7,989 nt of DNA from a virus. Its lineage: Duplodnaviria > Heunggongvirae > Uroviricota > Caudoviricetes. Both the position numbers and the translations under genes were made by a program. The DNA lies in IMG/VR virus record IMGVR_UViG_3300029878_000067, one strand, 5' to 3'. The number at the start of each line of letters is the position of its first letter. Position 1 is the first letter of the stretch. Shown here in pieces: positions 1 to 7,989 of this stretch. Below the pieces are notes generated by a model. It was not told the DNA's origin. It saw nothing but the letters and a program-made list of their open reading frames with translations, and did no database searches.

Positions 1-2234
<2,234 letters not shown>

Positions 2235-2291
2235 TCATGCTCCATAAACGACAAAACCGCCCGCAGGCGGTTTCACATAAAACGTTTTTCA

Positions 2292-2471
2292 TCAACGACC
2301 AATCACCACAACCTGACCACCGTCCCCCTCGTCTGCCGTGCTGATCTCCTGAGAAGCCACCCGCGACCCCACGCGCATTTCACCGTACAGAACAGGCAGA
2401 ACATTGCCCTGGGCAACCATGTTATCCAGTGAGGAGAAATAGGTGTTCTGCTTACGCAGCTCTGCTGTCAC
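2292..2471 (-). pseudogene. I: Remnant: first ~6 codons of head protease/scaffold gene C (GTG start at 2471..2469) fused in frame to the C-terminal ~53 codons of tail assembly protein I
   Basis: Seen in sequence: minus-strand reading from GTG gives V/M-TAELR then KQNTYFSSLDNMVAQGNVLPVLYGEMRVGSRVASQEISTADEGDGGQVVVIGR and a stop. Established knowledge: TAELR is the start of lambda gpC and the remainder is the gpI C-terminus. Junction at about 2452 with AA microhomology. The 104-aa ORF in the track (2292..2606) reads out of frame through B sequence for its N-terminal half. Confidence 0.75.
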
Positions 2472-2751
2472 TCTTCTCCTCCTCTGTTGATTGTCGCAGT
2501 CCGGATTCAAATGCCGCAGCCGCCCAGGCGGGCGGTTTAAGACCGGCTGCACGGCGCTCCATCGTTTCACGGACCTGCTGGGCAAAAATTTCCTGATAGT
2601 CGTCACCGCGTTTCGCGCACTCTTTCTCGTAGGTGCTCAGTCCGGCTTCTATCAGCATCACCGCTTCCTGAACTTCTTTCAGACCATCGATGGCCATACG
2701 ACCGGAGCCTATCCAGTCGCAGTTCCCCCAGGCACTGCGGGCTTCCTGAAA
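2452..2751 (-). pseudogene. B: Portal protein B remnant, C-terminal ~99 codons only
   Basis: Seen in sequence: minus-strand frame gives FQEARSAWGNCDWIGSGRMAIDGLKEVQEAVMLIEAGLSTYEKECAKRGDDYQEIFAQQVRETMERRAAGLKPPAWAAAAFESGLRQSTEEEKSDSRAA then TAA at 2454..2452. Established knowledge: matches the remembered C-terminus of lambda gpB. No upstream portal sequence is present; the fragment abuts terminase A sequence out of frame at about 2751. Confidence 0.8.
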
Positions 2752-3533
2752 ACCCCGTTTTTGTTTCGCTTACGTGGCATGCTGGCCACCGGCTTTCCGT
2801 AGACGGATGCCCCTTTAATGGGGATCACCCGGAACAGCCCATGTTTTTTCGAGCGTTCATACACAATGGTCGGGTCAATCCCGCCAGTATCCCAGCAGAT
2901 ACGGGATACCGACATCTCTGCACCATTCCGGCGGGTATAGGTTTTATTGATGGCCTCATCCACACGCAGCAGCGTCTGTTCATCGTCGTGGCGGCCCATA
3001 ATAATCTGCCGGTCAATCAGCCAGCTTTCCTCACCCGGCCCCCATCCCCATACGCGCATTTCGTAGCGATCCAGCTGGGAGTCGATACCGGCGGTCAGGT
3101 AAGCCACACGGTCAGGAACGGACGCTGAATAATGCTCTTTCCGCTCTGCCATCACTTCAGCATCCGGACGTTCGCCGATTTTCGCTTCCCACGTCTCACC
3201 GAGCGTGGTGTTCACGAAGGTTTTACGTTTTCCCGTAAGGGTGTTGCGCTGCTTATGCTCTATGAAGTAGGCATAAACACCCAGCAGCATTTTGGAATAA
3301 CCGACACGGGCANNNNNNNNNNNNNNNNNNNNNNNNNNNNNNNNNNNNNNNNNNNNNNNNNNNNNNNNNNNNNNNNNNNNNCAGCGCCCTTCCTGGTATG
3401 CGGATTCTTTCGGGAGATAGTAACTGGCATCCGCCCATTCAACGGCAGTCTGTGGCTCCGGCCTGAACAGGGCTCGCAGCCCGGCGCGTACATCACGCCG
3501 CAGAATATCAATCTGACTGTTCGATATATTCAC
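2709..3533 (-). pseudogene. A: Terminase large subunit A remnant: N-terminal ~99 codons joined to a C-terminal nuclease-domain segment, then fused out of frame to the B remnant; contains a 69-nt N-run
   Basis: Seen in sequence: translation [15 protein letters not shown]...ARVGYSKMLLGVYAYFIEHKQRNTL is followed directly by TGKRKTFVNTTLGETWEAKIGERPDAEVMAERKEHYSA...MPRKRNKNGV. Established knowledge: in lambda gpA these two blocks are separated by roughly 300 residues (ATPase-domain region), so there is an internal deletion at about 3236. After KNGV the frame runs into B-derived DNA and stops at 2709. The start overlaps Nu1 by 26 nt as in lambda. Confidence 0.85.
3313..3381. other. Run of 69 ambiguous bases (N): assembly gap or masked segment inside the terminase A remnant
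   Basis: Directly visible in the sequence; appears as X residues in three ORF-track translations. Confidence 0.97.
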
Positions 3534-4053
3534 TCAGCAACCCCGGTATCAGTTCATCCAGCGCGGCTGCTTTGTTCATGGCTTTGATGATATCCCGTTT
3601 CAGGAAATCAACATGTCGGTTTTCCAGTTCCGGAAAACGCCGCTGTACCGAGAGAGGGATCCCGTCAAGAATACTGGCAATTTCACCTGCGATCCGTGAC
3701 AGCACGAAAGTACAGAATGCGGTTTCCACCACCTCTGCGGAGTCTCTGGCATTCTTCAGCTCCTGTGCGTCGGCCTGCGCACGCGTAAGTCGATGGCGTT
3801 CGTACTCAATAGTCCCAGGCTGGAGATCTGCCTCACTGGCAGCCCTGTAATCCACAACCTCTTTACGGAGTTTTTCATTTTCGATATCAGCTTCCCTCTG
3901 CGCATACCACTGAATTGCCATGGCGGTATCAAATACAGATTCAACGCCCTTACCACCTCCGGAGACGCAAGGGAGTCCCTGAGACTGCCAGCGTTCAATC
4001 GTTCGCGGATCCACGTTGAAAATTTCGGCAAGTTTCTTTTTATTAACCTTCAT
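3508..4053 (-). CDS. Nu1: Terminase small subunit Nu1 (181 aa), apparently intact
   Basis: ORF-track protein [36 protein letters not shown]... The C-terminal ~100 residues ([60 protein letters not shown]...LSEYIEQS) match my recollection of lambda gpNu1 nearly exactly; the N-terminal DNA-binding region is similar but diverged. Lies cos-proximal with a 26-nt overlap onto the A start, as in lambda. Confidence 0.9.
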
Positions 4054-4080
4054 GAAACAGTCTCACAATAAATACAGGGG

Positions 4081-4190
4081 CCGACATGAAAGTGCCCGAA
4101 AATGACTTTTTTAGGCGTTTTCATGTCGGACCTTTTACGGATTCGATATTAGAAAAAACAAATAGTTATGTTCGAGAAGTACCGACATGA
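4081..4190 (-). promoter_or_regulatory. cosB: three copies of a CCGACATGA-core repeat (4081..4089 direct, 4121..4129 inverted, 4182..4190 direct) with an AT-rich A-tract spacer (about 4141..4175) between the cosN-proximal pair; candidate Nu1 binding sites R3/R2/R1 with a bend/IHF-type site
   Basis: Seen in sequence: GCCGACATGAAAGTG, TTTTCATGTCGGACC (reverse complement TCCGACATGAAAA) and ACCGACATGATTTTC. Inference: the arrangement resembles the multi-R-site cosB architecture of lambdoid phages; site identity is not lambda-like, consistent with the diverged Nu1 N-terminus. Confidence 0.5.
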
Positions 4191-4229
4191 TTTTCCCCGG
4201 AAAATTTTCATAAATAGCGAAAACCCGCG

Positions 4230-4241
4230 AGGTCGCCGCCC
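4230..4241 (-). other. cosN: cosN 12-nt cohesive-end sequence (GGGCGGCGACCT on the minus strand)
   Basis: Exact 12-mer AGGTCGCCGCCC on the plus strand at 4230..4241, embedded in lambda-like flanks, about 177 bp from the Nu1 start codon (lambda spacing is about 179). Confidence 0.85.
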
Positions 4242-4464
4242 CGTAACCTGTCGGATCGCCGGAAAGGACCCGCCAACGACTTTCGCGTGCAGGCATTAAA
4301 AATTTTGCAGTTCCATGCCTAGTTGAAACCTCGATTTCTATAACATCCAATTTTGTAAATTTAGATATAGCTCAACTTTTCCCAATGTTTTCAAGTGTAT
4401 AAAAACAATTGGCGTTACGCCATAACACTATACTTAGGATAAGTAAAGATTTTAAGGAGTTTTA

Positions 4465-5532
4465 ATGAGTCAACATCAATATTACCCACAGCTGAAATGG
4501 AAGCCTGCTGAATATGAATCTCTGATGCTTTTAGATCAAACTACGCTCTCTGGTTTTACTCCGATCATTACCATTCCAGACATAGACTGGGATTATGAAA
4601 ACGAATGCTACAAGAAGAGTTTGAGTTCTTACTTATCTGACTTCGGTATTAACCTTGCGGCATCCTGGAAAGCCAATCGTCCTGTTTTGCTGGATGTTAA
4701 ATATTTAGATAAACATGGTTCGAGCCGCCATCATCCTCTAGATATGTGTATCCAAGATGCTAGAGTAAATGGTAAGGAAATTATCCCTGTTGTCTCTCCC
4801 GCATATTCAACAAACTATATACATGCTGTTCAACGCAACTTAATCAATGGGCTCGCTATATCTATCACCCCCCAGACATGGCACCAATTCACAAGTCTGG
4901 TTAACCACTTAAATATTCATCCTAGTTTAATTGATGTAATCATTGATTTTGGAGATATTCAAAACGCAACTGATAGTTTAAAACAACAAGCATTAAGCAT
5001 GGTCAACACATTATCAGGCCAAGCTCCGTGGAGAAACTTGATTTTATCTTCAACCGCATACCCTGCATCACAGGCAGGGATACCGCAACATCAAGTTCAT
5101 CATATTCCGCGCCATGAATACGATCTTTGGATGTATGTAGTACAGAATTTTAGCAATGGAAGAACGCCAAGTTTTAGTGATTATCCCACCGCTAGCTCTA
5201 CCATTACGAGCGTAGACCCACGCTTCATGTCTCAGTATGTCTCAGTGAGATATTCGAACGATACCTCATGGATCTTTGTAAAAGGTACCGCAGTTAAAGG
5301 AAATGGATGGGGCCAAACTAAAAACTTATGTACTACCCTTGTTAGTTCGCCAGAGTATCAAGTCTTTGGCTCCAAATTTAGTTGGGGGGATGATTACATT
5401 TACCAAAGATCATTAGGCGCTAACAAATCTGGCGGCTCTAAAGAATGGCGTAAAGTTGCACATACGCACCATATTACGTTAGTCGTGAGACAGCTTTATT
5501 GGTTGGCGCAGACTCAGCCTGCCAAGCCTTAA
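4465..5532 (+). CDS. Hypothetical protein, 355 aa, AT-rich cargo gene; function unknown
   Basis: Seen in sequence: long ORF with a perfect AAGGAG at 4454..4459, 5 nt before the ATG; GC content visibly lower than the flanking phage genes (by eye, not computed); AT-rich upstream region with -10-like hexamers (TATAAA 4398..4403, TATACT 4429..4434). Protein begins MSQHQYYPQLKWKPAEYESL; no nucleotide-binding or catalytic motif that I can assign with confidence. Confidence 0.72.
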   Translation: MSQHQYYPQLKWKPAEYESLMLLDQTTLSGFTPIITIPDIDWDYENECYKKSLSSYLSDFGINLAASWKANRPVLLDVKYLDKHGSSRHHPLDMCIQDARVNGKEIIPVVSPAYSTNYIHAVQRNLINGLAISITPQTWHQFTSLVNHLNIHPSLIDVIIDFGDIQNATDSLKQQALSMVNTLSGQAPWRNLILSSTAYPASQAGIPQHQVHHIPRHEYDLWMYVVQNFSNGRTPSFSDYPTASSTITSVDPRFMSQYVSVRYSNDTSWIFVKGTAVKGNGWGQTKNLCTTLVSSPEYQVFGSKFSWGDDYIYQRSLGANKSGGSKEWRKVAHTHHITLVVRQLYWLAQTQPAKP

Positions 5533-6094
5533 CTTTCCAGCCTACGCGTTTCTTTAAGGCTGTTCTGACTTCAAGCCTGAGATTCGCTATTGGAATATTT
5601 TCCGCAATAATATTCCATAACTCAAATCGGGGCTTGCTTTTGATTCCTTTGGAATAGCCCCATCGTTCAAGTACGTCGATACATTCATCTTTCCAAAGCA
5701 ATTGAGCGAGCATCAATGAGTTATGGTTTCGATTAAGCTTTTCTCCACGCATGTGCTTTATAAGAATGGCGCCTTTTGGCCCAACAGAAACCGTTTTAAC
5801 GCCCCACCAACCTGGGATTAACTTTAATGCTCCCTCAAGATGTTTCTCAGCTACGACAAGAGTAACCTTGTCCATTACAGAAGAATAATGCTTGATTTGA
5901 AGAGGCAAACGCTCCAAAGAGTCATATTCACTTTTGAGCTCGTACCCGTGTATAACACCATTTATTACAGCAATGTCTGCTCTACTGGCGCCAAGGGATA
6001 TGGAAAATTCATCGACCACAAGGCAGTCAGGATCTAAATGCGATTCTTTCAAAAGCTTATGATGCACCGCGAACCTAACATCTTGATCTTTCAT
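5474..6094 (-). CDS. Hypothetical protein, 206 aa, with a PD-(D/E)xK nuclease-like motif; AT-rich cargo gene
   Basis: Seen in sequence: ORF with AAGGAG (plus-strand CTCCTT at 6100..6105) 5 nt before the ATG. Protein contains LVVDEF ... SRADIAVING ... HGYELKSEYD, i.e. an acidic residue, then D, then E-x-K about 11 residues later, in an alternating strand/helix context. Inference: this is the signature of restriction-endonuclease-like folds. Convergent with, and overlapping by 59 nt, the 355-aa gene. Confidence 0.7.
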   Translation of the reverse strand: MKDQDVRFAVHHKLLKESHLDPDCLVVDEFSISLGASRADIAVINGVIHGYELKSEYDSLERLPLQIKHYSSVMDKVTLVVAEKHLEGALKLIPGWWGVKTVSVGPKGAILIKHMRGEKLNRNHNSLMLAQLLWKDECIDVLERWGYSKGIKSKPRFELWNIIAENIPIANLRLEVRTALKKRVGWKVKAWQAESAPTNKAVSRLT

Positions 6095-6122
6095 GACTTC
6101 TCCTTACTCCCTCCGTTACTGA

Positions 6123-6128
6123 ATTATA
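6123..6128 (-). promoter_or_regulatory. Candidate -10 hexamer (perfect TATAAT on the minus strand) about 30 nt upstream of the 206-aa gene start
   Basis: Plus-strand ATTATA at 6123..6128 is TATAAT on the minus strand; no good -35 match at 16..18 bp spacing; an adjacent tandem repeat occupies the -35 zone. Confidence 0.3.
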
Positions 6129-6132
6129 GCGC

Positions 6133-6151
6133 ACTGCATTTTACTGCATTT
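6133..6151. repeat. Tandem direct repeat ACTGCATTT x2 with 10-bp periodicity, immediately upstream of the candidate -10 of the 206-aa gene
   Basis: Plus strand reads CACTGCATTT TACTGCATTT at 6132..6151; one helical turn apart; located where a -35 element or activator/repressor site would sit. Confidence 0.5.
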
Positions 6152-6445
6152 GAGAGATTTGACCACTTCAATCACAAAATGCTTATCTGCAGCAACAAGA
6201 TTCATAGCCATACGACTATGGTGATTACCTTTTGTCTGGAAAACTGACCATTCCACGAAGATCAGATAGGTCTATAGAATCTTGGTTTGTCATAGCGTTC
6301 GCCTTACTTTGAGATGAACCTTTGCTGCATAGGAGATCAGCCCGTCAAGGCTCACCAGCACTAACTGACTACTCAAAGGCTCATTCCAAAGGGTTTGGTT
6401 CGACGTGGTTGAGTGCGCTGCGGTGCGCGGTGAAATACCTGTACA

Positions 6446-6473
6446 AAAATGCCCCGCATCTGCGAGGCATTTT
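6446..6473 (-). terminator. Terminator-like hairpin about 38 bp downstream of Rz, flanked by an A-run and a T-run (potentially bidirectional)
   Basis: Seen in sequence: AAAAATGCCCCGCATCTGCGAGGCATTTTCC. GCC/GGC and CGC/GCG pair around an ATCT loop with A-T extension; on the minus strand the stem is followed by TTTTTGTAC (5 U), on the plus strand by TTTTCC (4 U). No folding energy was computed. Confidence 0.42.
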
Positions 6474-6510
6474 CCTGAAAGTCACTTGTTAAATTTCAGT
6501 GAAATTAAAA

Positions 6511-6963
6511 TTATTTTAAGCACTGCGTCCTGATGTACTCCTGCAAGTAGTTAACCTGCGCGGTTATCTTGTCGATTCCACTTCGGAGACGGTAATAATT
6601 GAGTTCAGCATCTGCTGTAAGTCCTGGGCTTTCTCCATTGCCCATGCCGCTGGCTCCGGTCGTTGACTTTGCACAGGTGGCGGCGACTTGCAGGCGCTTA
6701 CGCCCAACAGAAACATCAGCACGTAGACTTTCGATAGTCGCGTTAGCATCAGCAAGCTCCTTTGTGTATCTTGCGTCGAGTTCTGCTACATCACGTTGAC
6801 GCTTCCGCATGTCAGCGATGATGTACGTGGCTTTATCGCGCTGTTCTTTATAGGTAATGGCATTATCACGGTAATGATTAACAGCCCATGACAGGCAGAC
6901 GATGATGCAGATAACCAGAGCATAAATAATCGCGGCGACTCTGCTCACTGATCTATCCCCCAA
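6511..6963 (-). CDS. Rz: Spanin inner-membrane subunit Rz (i-spanin), 150 aa
   Basis: Protein has an N-terminal TM segment [30 protein letters not shown] and a coiled-coil-like remainder; closely resembles remembered lambda Rz; sits immediately downstream of the endolysin with a 19-nt overlap. Confidence 0.85.
6564..6755 (-). CDS. Rz1: Spanin outer-membrane lipoprotein subunit Rz1 (o-spanin), embedded in the +1 frame of Rz
   Basis: ORF entirely inside Rz in another frame; signal-peptide-like N-terminus with lipobox-like VSAC followed by a proline-rich segment [16 protein letters not shown], the typical Rz1 architecture. The true start could be an internal Met. Confidence 0.72.
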
Positions 6964-7478
6964 CAGGCTAATGCGCTTTCCTGGTCACGACGAATAACCT
7001 GTCCATAGCAGTTATTTGAACGTATGCGGCAATCGCGCCCACCATCTTTTATCCACCAGCGAATCGCCTCGCATGCACCTTTACGATCACCGGCATTCAG
7101 CCGCTTATAAAACGTCGACGGGAAACACTTACCGGGGCCAATGTTATAGGGACAGAATGACGCTATACCCGCTTTTTGTGGTTCGGTCAGTGGTACTTTA
7201 ATATTGCGCTCCACCCATGCCAGCGCCTTATCACGCTCAATGGCGTTGACCTGGTCGCATTTTTCCTTCGACAGTTTCATACCGGGAAAAACGGGTTTTC
7301 CATCCACCATCGTGGCACCCCGACAGATGGTCCAGATGCCGGACCCATCGCGGTATGCCGTTGTGTGGTTACCTTCTTTTTCATCCAGAAACTGGTCGAG
7401 AATATCAGGCGCGGGCGCACCGACGGCAATCAGTGCCAGAACGGCAGCCGACAGGCCGTATCTGATTTTTGCGTTCAT
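6945..7478 (-). CDS. R: Endolysin R, T4-lysozyme-type (GH24) muramidase with N-terminal SAR (signal-anchor-release) domain, 177 aa
   Basis: Catalytic-triad spacing E-x8-D-x5-T in [23 protein letters not shown]; Gly/Ala-rich weakly hydrophobic N-terminus [16 protein letters not shown] typical of SAR endolysins; from memory, near-identical to E. coli cryptic-prophage lysozyme RrrQ and similar to phage 21 R. Confidence 0.9.
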
Positions 7479-7541
7479 GGATATTTATCAGGATTTATCG
7501 GTTTCTGCCCACGGACAGGTTTATCTGTTCCGGTCAGTGAC

Positions 7542-7892
7542 TTAAGGTTGTGATTCCGGAGGAGTCTTCAGAGAACCAGTAATTCTTCCCGGTAGCTTTC
7601 CTTTGTAGGTTATCCATACATTCTGCGCCTCTAAAATTACGGGGCGCTTTTCCGGCGACTGCTCATCCCCTTCACATAACCCGGCAGCAACATCCAGGAA
7701 GACCTGTCTGATGCTCATTCTGGCTGCTGCCTCATAAAACTCCAGCGCGGCACCTTCAACACGGTCCAGCGAGATGTCCAGGTCAAAAATTTCACCGTCA
7801 AAGCGTTTTTTGTCCCGTAACGCTAAAGTTACCGTAACTTTATTCTCAAAATTGCGGATCCCTTTCACAATCAGTTCATAGTTTTGAGTCAT
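7542..7892 (-). CDS. Small phage protein of unknown function between holin and endolysin (YdfR/DUF1327-like, assignment from memory), 116 aa
   Basis: ORF with start ATG at 7892..7890, 5 nt after the holin stop; its position between the S and R homologs mirrors the essQ-ydfR-rrrQ order of the E. coli Qin prophage as I recall it. No motif verified. Confidence 0.55.
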   Translation of the reverse strand: MTQNYELIVKGIRNFENKVTVTLALRDKKRFDGEIFDLDISLDRVEGAALEFYEAAARMSIRQVFLDVAAGLCEGDEQSPEKRPVILEAQNVWITYKGKLPGRITGSLKTPPESQP

Positions 7893-7896
7893 TGAA

Positions 7897-7989
7897 TTAC
7901 TCTCCCCGTGCCGCCTTACGACGGTCCTCTCTGATTTTGAAATACAGGTTAGTCAGATATGTCAGCAGCCCAAACAGCAGACTCCCCAG
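7897..7989 (-). CDS. S: Holin S (phage 21-type class II pinholin), C-terminal 30 codons; N-terminus beyond the window end
   Basis: Minus-strand translation of the window end reads [30 protein letters not shown] then stop (TAA at 7899..7897); matches the remembered C-terminus of phage 21 S / E. coli EssD. Absent from the ORF track because the start is outside the window. Confidence 0.78.

Follow-up and report, generated by a model that had tools for sequence, protein, structure and literature searches.

A lambda-like prophage in which the tail tip gene J adjoins pieces of the packaging genes raises two questions: through what events were the intervening head and tail genes lost, and were the breaks that removed them placed at random? 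We addressed these questions for a stretch of 7,989 nucleotides from the IMG/VR virus record IMGVR_UViG_3300029878_000067 (hereafter, the window, that is, the whole stretch analyzed). A preliminary description of this DNA, made from the sequence, proposed that three precise, successive, microhomology-mediated deletions had produced a defective prophage. The three junctions were confirmed; the interpretation was partly supported, as detailed below.

Gene order and closest relatives of the window

The window appears to come from a lambda-like Escherichia coli prophage, of which it represents the late region in the minus-strand orientation, and exact-protein look-ups assigned its genes to E. coli. 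Read along the minus strand, it encodes a YdfR-like protein (7542-7892), lysozyme (6945-7478), Rz with the embedded Rz1 (6511-6963) and two cargo genes (5474-6094 and 4465-5532), followed by the cos region (4230..4272; in the BLAST alignment, lambda base 1 corresponds to window position 4241 and lambda base 48502 to position 4242), the gene for the small terminase subunit Nu1 (3508..4053), a shortened A, stubs of B, C and I, and J (3..2231). Nu1 is intact (181 aa; Pfam Phage_Nu1, positions 1-164 of 164, E=6.5e-90), and the exact-protein look-up shows that identical copies are common in E. coli. J apparently is intact as well: its N-terminal 743 codons, from the start codon at 2231-2229 to the point where the gene runs off the window, are all open, contain the Pfam domains FNIII-A_GpJ, Phage-tail_3 and Ig_J, and are 94.6-95.6% identical to lambda (15505 onwards) and to the closest relative described next (BLAST). 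The window ends within J on one side and within the lysis region on the other, and no int, xis, att, repressor or replication genes lie inside it.

The reverse-complemented window was compared by BLAST with phage lambda (J02459, L001) and with a prophage of E. coli WP5-S17-ESBL-10 (L002). The latter was the nearest intact relative that we found; its A-to-J morphogenesis block is complete, and its cargo genes are those of the window. Both comparisons yield five collinear blocks, gap-free inside each, with identities to L002 of 99.6% (3382-7989), 100% (3236-3312), 99.8% (2750-3237), 98.7% (the B stub) and 95.6% (J). The prophage copy is young, as judged by the 99.6-99.8% identity of the packaging and cargo part to the intact relative. 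The locus can be derived from a full prophage simply by deletions.

Three deletion junctions

Alignment with lambda and related prophages defined the breakpoints exactly and found the intervening genes to be absent. At the first junction (J1, 3236..3237), base-level alignment to lambda and L002 joins lambda position 1017 to position 1757 with a TA overlap; exactly 741 bp of gene A are gone, in frame, so that gpA residues 103-349 are missing and L102 is followed directly by T350 (...RNTL-TGKRKTF). This is exactly the in-frame joint that the preliminary description had placed at about 3236 and to which it attributed the removal of the ATPase-domain region; accordingly, the A remnant has no Pfam match to the ATPase domain, and a partial match to GpA_nuclease (model positions 35-193 of 294) is present. 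The Walker B and coupling motifs of gpA presumably fall inside the deleted 103-349 segment. What is left of A is the N-terminus (codons 1-102; 3238..3533, GTG start at 3533), broken by a run of 69 N, and a fragment corresponding to gpA residues 350-511, the core of the nuclease domain (2754..3235; 99.8% identical to L002). Together these form a reading frame of 274 codons, the masked part included (2709..3533), that extends from the N-terminus through J1 and the nuclease core across the second junction into a 13-residue out-of-frame tail.

The N-run (3313-3381) stands in place of 78 nt in lambda and L002 (lambda 863-940), being 9 nt shorter than the sequence that it replaces; the frame is kept, with 24 codons masked where the relatives have 27, and, given the 9-nt shortfall, something may be hidden within the run. 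The left contig stops exactly 77 nt beyond J1 (3236-3312), and the N-gap follows. The 77 nt are probably the residue of a short-read assembler with a final k=77 at a transition from unique to repeated sequence, and the gap would be a paired-read size estimate across an A segment common to several prophages in the genome. If the gap is read in this way, the Nu1 side is tied to the J1 side by scaffolding alone.

The second junction (J2, 2750..2753) joins lambda 2244 to 4136, with an overlap of TT (2750-2751) in the alignment with L002 or GTTT in the alignment with lambda, and with a loss of 1,888/1,895 bp that comprises the C-terminus of A, W and most of B. Codon 511 of A is joined out of frame to codon 434 of the portal gene B, V511 of gpA being followed by the 13-residue tail; the portal-binding C-terminus of gpA is, we assume, located beyond residue 511. 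The position, residues and genes agree with the joint between A and the end of B that had been described at about 2751. The B remnant, approximately the last 100 codons (2452..2753, minus strand; lambda 4136-4437, ~300 bp), is 98.7% identical to lambda, retains no Pfam match and contains an internal ORF of 81 aa (2452-2697, minus strand). This ORF was considered as a marker of J2 and discarded: gene calls in hundreds of assemblies include it, and all 10 of the 10 places examined were split portal genes without J2.

At the third junction (J3, 2452..2455), lambda 4437 is joined to 15281, with the loss of 10,839/10,847 bp that span C through K and most of I. Codon 6/7 of C is fused in frame to codon 170 of I, which yields a chimeric C'-'I ORF of 59 aa on the minus strand (2292..2471, GTG start at 2471) composed of C codons 1-6 and the last 53 codons of I; the I remnant, 53 codons plus the stop (2292..2451), is collinear with lambda 15285-15444. 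The earlier placement of this joint at about 2452, between C codon 6 and the last ~53 codons of I, holds; the AA overlap given there does not, the base-level alignment showing 4 nt, GTAA, and that the fusion is in frame is an addition to the earlier account.

The three losses sum to ~13.47 kb (~13.5 kb missing relative to lambda and L002, where more than 10 kb had been estimated) and include the ATPase core and C-terminus of A, W, most of B, C, Nu3, D, E, FI, FII, Z, U, V, G, T, H, M, L and K, and most of I; in the collinear-block map, J now adjoins the packaging remnants, as the preliminary description had stated. The late gene order and sequence are of the lambda type, and genes essential for the virion are lost or disrupted, which agrees with the earlier classification as a defective lambdoid prophage; such a prophage would be unable to produce infectious virions. 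The earlier label 'locked-in' finds no support: no feature of the window speaks to excision, which the loss of head and tail genes does not prevent. A phage satellite that relies on the cos packaging of a helper would combine a cos site with integration, replication and helper-hijacking genes of its own and would have no virion genes; in the window, cos and Nu1 are intact, but J is retained, as are lom and stf in a related contig (L005, see below).

In the base-level alignment, all three joints are free of filler DNA, and the window has no insertion sequence (IS) at the joints or in their vicinity. In simulations with random pairs of breakpoints in the parental sequence, an overlap of at least 2 nt was found in 16% of the pairs and one of at least 4 nt in 2%, whereas a summed overlap of at least 8 nt over three joints has P of about 0.009; the observed overlaps are modestly above chance. 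Two-nucleotide overlaps as such are weak evidence for annealing-driven joining.

Occurrence of the junctions elsewhere and the order of events

Each of the three junctions is found in 0 of the 5,426 complete E. coli genomes, and exact-pattern scans for the two-joint J2-J3 arrangement and for plain J1 produced no hits in IMG/VR, the GTDB species representatives or the JGI metagenomes. Likewise, 0 of 111 gpA-nuclease relatives are J1-type proteins. The exact 59-aa C'-'I protein was detected in only 2 contigs in a collection of 15 billion proteins: L005 (Logan SRR9971508; 5,981 bp, reaching lom/stf) and L006 (ENA ERZ27256595; 1,699 bp). Both contigs carry J2 and J3 identical to those of the window base for base, with 0 and 1 base differences, respectively, across the scar region; all 26 differences between L005 and the window are confined to a patch in J (window 78-363). 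Neither contig has J1: the undeleted A sequence continues for 66 nt (L005) and 91 nt (L006) past the site. J2 and J3, in turn, were never seen apart in the window, L005 or L006.

Because a state with J2 and J3 but without J1 exists, the decay must have comprised two or more steps, provided that J1 did not arise through an error of assembly; we consider such an error the less likely of the two and J1 a later event in the lineage of the window. The claim that the deletions were successive is thus borne out by the two other samples. The intact relative, the J2+J3 state and the J2+J3+J1 state form a natural series of intermediates at near-identical sequence, in which stepwise decay over a short time can be followed. 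With J2 and J3 in two other samples and J1 in the window genome only, the scars are useful at most as a rare lineage marker.

Recurrent breakpoints

The right end of J1, ...TA followed by CGGGAAAACGTAAAACC (lambda 1757-58/1759, between D349 and T350 of gpA; GGGGA-TA-CGGG), is common to unrelated prophage remnants. Including J1 of the window, at least 13 independent deletions or inversions have a breakpoint at lambda 1757-59. Where the right side of the site is kept, the left partner varies: nt 1017 of A in the window; nt 299, 236 and 701 of Nu1 in L017, L021 and L037, respectively; a lysozyme gene in L018; a TerB-like cargo gene in L019/L020; and nt 1077 of A in L024, a Citrobacter contig that is ~80% identical to lambda. 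Where the left side is kept, the joint leads to J (L026 and L029), to B (L028) or to a tail-fibre region (L030-32); in addition, L036 is an inversion with the portal gene B, and L027 is a small deletion of 7 nt. The A-side end of J2 (lambda 2242-44) was used in at least three events, including L022, which joins it to the tail-fibre region, and L023, which joins it to an inverted Nu1. A third site, lambda 2267-68 (gpA D519/T520), has seven partners at the protein level, three of them confirmed at the nucleotide level (L017, L033 and L034).

A position-unbiased survey of proteins produced ~45 distinct joints over ~350 codons, with pile-ups of 4 and 7 at single codons (P well below 0.01 after correction for the number of codons, by a rough Poisson estimate); the protein searches are biased towards in-frame fusions. 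Selection for in-frame fusions was rejected as an explanation, given that it cannot account for nucleotide-exact reuse. In a set of joints unselected for site, ~10 of 15 have TA in the overlap, and GATA or TATC accounts for about half of the TA half-sites, versus an expectation of ~12%. At both of the strongest sites, GGATAC precedes a G or C; the Fi-J joint of the DE3 prophage in strain BLR(DE3) is located at GGATAC(G), and a joint in strain EcPF15 pairs TATCC with GGATA. The third GGATAC in gene A, with T as the next base (lambda 2102), is not hot; the + strand of lambda has 17 copies of GGATAC and the opposite strand has 9. Site-specific recombination by an integrase, invertase or resolvase would call for two similar sites with dyad symmetry and a fixed crossover core, with site orientation determining the outcome. 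In the joints examined, the crossover is at TA and many partners have GGATA/TATCC, but the partners are heterogeneous and no dyad symmetry is evident; L021 is a deletion between oppositely oriented half-sites.

Several candidate explanations for the recurrence were considered. No insertion of an IS, intron or intein is present at the hotspot in the 8 IMG/VR contigs that diverge at 1758/59, and none of the 120 gpA relatives listed contains an intein or homing-endonuclease domain. A hairpin as the cause was discarded: the potential structure has a stem of only 4 bp (TACG-GGAAAA-CGTA) and is weak (z about -2). Microhomology between repeated hexamers covers a few events with 5-6-nt overlaps (L034, L036 and L037), not the TA/TAC-only majority. 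To our knowledge, none of the following fits the position of the breaks: Chi, Ter, cosN, the cosB R-sites, the lambda att core, lox, invertase sites, the gyrase and topoisomerase I consensus sequences, relaxase nic sites or the BciVI site.

The proposal that the deletions were mediated by microhomology therefore stands in one respect and fails in another. The joints share 2-4 nt, within the range of short shared sequence (about 1-9 nt) without filler that typifies such deletions, but the breakpoints do not lack site preference: the right end of J1 and the A-side end of J2 are nucleotide-identical to the breakpoints of many independent remnants. The exact coincidence of breakpoints suggests preferred break sites rather than random ends that share a few bases by chance. 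We put forward, tentatively and as a possibility that falls short of probable, that the decay of lambda-like prophages is driven by a sequence-preferring breaking or joining activity at TA in GGATA(C)-type sites, such that chains of remnants as in the window and in the DE3 prophage of BLR(DE3) could arise from few cuts, perhaps within a single episode. Lambda 1757-59 would then be a super-hotspot and 2267-68 and 2242-44 further hotspots, with the Citrobacter contig counted beside the E. coli events; candidates would be a nuclease producing TA ends, an enzyme of the transposase type with specificity for TA, and a fork barrier with template switching. If a defined activity makes the breaks, the inactivation of prophages would be dictated in part by sequence instead of being random, which would bear on the speed and form of prophage disarming and on which remnants survive (cos, Nu1, the nuclease core of A and the tail-fibre genes). 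The recurrent TA-centred breakpoints are the sole aspect of this locus that goes beyond the ordinary, and a systematic census is due before any claim is made.

Origin of the deletions

Very probably, the window is the product of three real deletions that occurred in at least two steps by RecA-independent illegitimate recombination through 2-4 shared bases. J2 and J3 would have arisen first, together or in quick succession, and J1 afterwards, in the lineage of the window genome. Each joint may have formed by direct rejoining of two DNA ends or strands via the shared bases, with no DNA inserted, through either end joining or template switching, and two of the six ends would lie at preferred break sites. 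Some observations sit uneasily with this scenario. J1 lacks independent support, being located 77 nt from a contig/scaffold break and absent in the two closest relatives; and plain microhomology joining leaves the nucleotide-exact reuse of two breakpoints unexplained, the breaks being not random.

Unlikely, but a live alternative for J2 and J3 at least, is an origin in a single episode, in which several site-preferring double-strand breaks were made at once and the surviving pieces religated in order; the breaks might be due, for example, to restriction of incoming phage DNA or to a nuclease that cuts at GGATA-like sites and produces TA ends. The invariable co-occurrence of J2 and J3 is consistent with such an event, as is the predominance of TA-centred positions among the mapped joints, many of them at GGATA/TATCC half-sites. 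Furthermore, the same sites are used with either side kept and in inversions (L023 and L036), as predicted for breaks and unlike the outcome of one-sided processes. A precedent of sorts is the DE3 prophage of BLR(DE3), which gained three large deletions that are absent in the parent BL21(DE3), one of these at GGATAC (PMC5454202). The absence of J1 from two relatives shows, however, that not all the deletions were simultaneous; the overlap at J2 is TT rather than TA, and the cold GGATAC at lambda 2102 is not what a break specificity of this kind would predict. We know of no enzyme with a TA/GGATA break specificity.

Decay driven by IS appears quite improbable. Under this scenario, IS formerly present at the recurrent sites were removed together with variable stretches of adjacent DNA by transposase cuts and the IS-excision enhancer (IEE), a polymerase-helicase with microhomology end-joining activity (PMC9943667). 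In form, the pattern at lambda 1757-59 fits, with one fixed end, a variable other end and a single 7-nt deletion (L027), but the joints in the window are free of IS, 0 of the 8 IMG/VR contigs that depart from lambda at 1758/59 show one, and in many lineages an IS would have had to insert at one and the same nucleotide.

We also judge it very unlikely that J1 is an artefact, that is, a chimeric join made by an assembler or scaffolder near a repeat common to several prophages of the genome. The suspicion arises from the distance of exactly 77 nt between J1 and the left contig end, a typical last k-mer length (the link to k=77 being our assumption), from the N-gap that follows, from the two nearest relatives without J1, and from the failure to find a second instance among the E. 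coli genomes, IMG/VR, the GTDB representatives, the JGI metagenomes and the 111 gpA relatives. De Bruijn assemblers, however, need k-1 identical bases, not 2, and an overhang of 77 nt is expected of a real transition from unique to repeated sequence. Moreover, the deletion is exactly 741 bp long and in frame, and its right end is the very nucleotide used in at least 12 other independent events from unrelated assemblies, a coincidence not expected of an artefact.

Finally, the notion that self-targeting of gene A by a type I-E CRISPR-Cas system made the break at lambda 1757-59 (protospacer at lambda 1753-84, PAM AAG at 1750-52, PAM-side degradation by Cas3) is largely refuted and hardly credible: the geometry would suit the six events with the right side kept, with a fixed end at protospacer position 6/7 and leftward deletions, as might be expected from the known behaviour of Cas3, but no complete E. 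coli genome contains a repeat-spacer-repeat unit for this protospacer (the best full-length alignment, 90% identical, is in 2 pieces and covers repeats only), inversions and events that retain the left side also make use of the site, and the other hotspots have GGATA, not a PAM, in common.

Comparison with known systems

The prophage in the window is of an ordinary kind, a lambdoid prophage that decayed recently and whose scars are rare and specific to its lineage. The defective lambdoid Sp prophages of E. coli O157 Sakai carry defects that range from frameshifts to large deletions (PMC2669165). As in these and in the cryptic prophages of K-12, Nu1 and pieces of A lie in the window next to tail or tail-fibre genes, with the head and tail genes lost; unlike in these, the breakpoints recur in 0 of the 5,426 complete E. 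coli genomes, the copy is young and there is no IS. One of the remnants that share the J1 right end (L017) has a DLP12-type layout, Nu1'-A'-tfa', the K-12 counterparts of which we take to be nohD, aaaD and tfaD.

With regard to mechanism, deletions in E. coli by IEE-assisted end joining, from single bases to tens of kb, with 2-6-nt overlaps and no filler, have been documented (PMC9943667); these require an IS, and none is seen at the joints in the window. The short overlaps without filler are shared with RecA-independent or alternative end joining in general, which, however, predicts neither the exact reuse of sites nor the preference for TA at GGATA/TATCC. Nested deletions at Ter/Tus arrest sites and at transposon ends have one end fixed to the nucleotide and the other variable. 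The same combination of a fixed end and a variable partner is observed at lambda 1757-59, where, in contrast, no Ter-like sequence or transposon end is recognised, either side can be kept and inversions occur as well.

A close parallel in scale is the DE3 prophage of BLR(DE3), with deletions of 4.9 kb (cro-Rz), 1.8 kb (A-B) and 11.1 kb (Fi-J) (Goffin & Dehottay 2017, PMC5454202). We mapped the A-B and Fi-J joints to lambda 2372/4158 and 7437/18558, with overlaps CTG and TAC, respectively. Both prophages have three large deletions, with the 1.8 kb A-B deletion similar in size to J2 (1.9 kb) and the 11.1 kb deletion to J3 (10.8 kb); the breakpoints in the window are different (2244/4136 and 4437/15281), and BLR(DE3), a laboratory strain, has no internal in-frame deletion in A. 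A C'-'I joint at lambda 4606/15276 is present in strain EcPF15, and the protein collection contains dozens of chimeras in which fragments of gpA are combined with Nu1, lysozyme, E, C/Nu3, J, L or Tfa.

Recurrent breakpoints in the terminase gene

The right end of J1, the 741-bp in-frame deletion in the terminase gene A (window 3236-3237, lambda 1757-59), coincides with a nucleotide-exact hotspot, GGGGA-TA-CGGG. At least 13 deletions or inversions of independent origin used this site, in which the fusion partners differ and either side is retained, and so did one 7-nt deletion; the loci are the prophage remnants L017, L018, L019/20, L021, L024 (a Citrobacter contig), L026-L032, L036, and L037, and no IS was seen at the breakpoint. 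The A-side end of J2, the out-of-frame junction of A with the portal gene B (window 2750-2753, lambda 2242-44), was found again in two other remnants, L022 and L023, one of which is an inversion. Another hotspot, at GGATAC, lies 23 nt downstream of this end, at lambda 2267-68 (gpA D519/T520; breakpoint in L017, L033, and L034), with seven fusion partners, all different.

J1 is followed by exactly 77 nt before the left contig breaks off, and the 69 N at window 3313-3381 stand for 78 nt in the relatives, 9 nt short but with the frame kept. This run looks like a scaffold gap spanning a repeat; a small additional deletion could be hidden within it.

In all 10 E. coli assemblies examined from NCBI (L007-L016), the lambda-like late genes (A, B, E, Z, and others) are broken into several short ORFs, which may reflect frameshift sequencing errors or genuine decay; exact-protein look-ups of short remnants are therefore unreliable as evidence of deletion.

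Mosaicism and cargo genes

Identity to lambda is only about 80% over cos-Nu1 and the beginning of A (window 3382-4241); the remaining part of A (window 2750-3312) is 98-99% identical, with the mosaic boundary near window 3470-3510. Repeated CATGTCGG motifs are present between cos and the small terminase subunit gene Nu1, unlike lambda cosB, which suggests, at the sequence level, that the Nu1/cosB specificity differs from that of lambda. Compared with the Logan contig carrying J2 and the C-I junction J3 (L005), all 26 differences fall within 286 nt of the tail tip gene J (window 78-363), and the 2,950 bases aligned outside are all identical; as judged from this alignment, the segment is a small recombination patch.

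Between Rz and cos, the window encompasses two overlapping, convergent genes, encoding a Beta_protein family protein (window 4465-5532, plus strand; PADLOC PD-Lambda-2_C, E=4e-32, and also PADLOC ‘beta’) and an sce7726-family protein (window 5474-6094, minus strand; PADLOC ‘cll’, E=3e-31). The pair, a candidate anti-phage cargo, is also carried without change by the intact relative L002.

Comparison with BLR(DE3) and EcPF15

The Fi-J deletion joint of BLR(DE3) (around position 9514-9516 of locus L003, overlap TAC) is located at GGATAC (lambda 7432-37), and the BLR B breakpoint (lambda 4158) lies 22 nt from that of the window (4136). The C'-'I joint of EcPF15 (8470-8471 of locus L004) pairs TATCC at lambda 4605 with GGATA at 15273, and its I breakpoint is 5 nt away from the one in the window.
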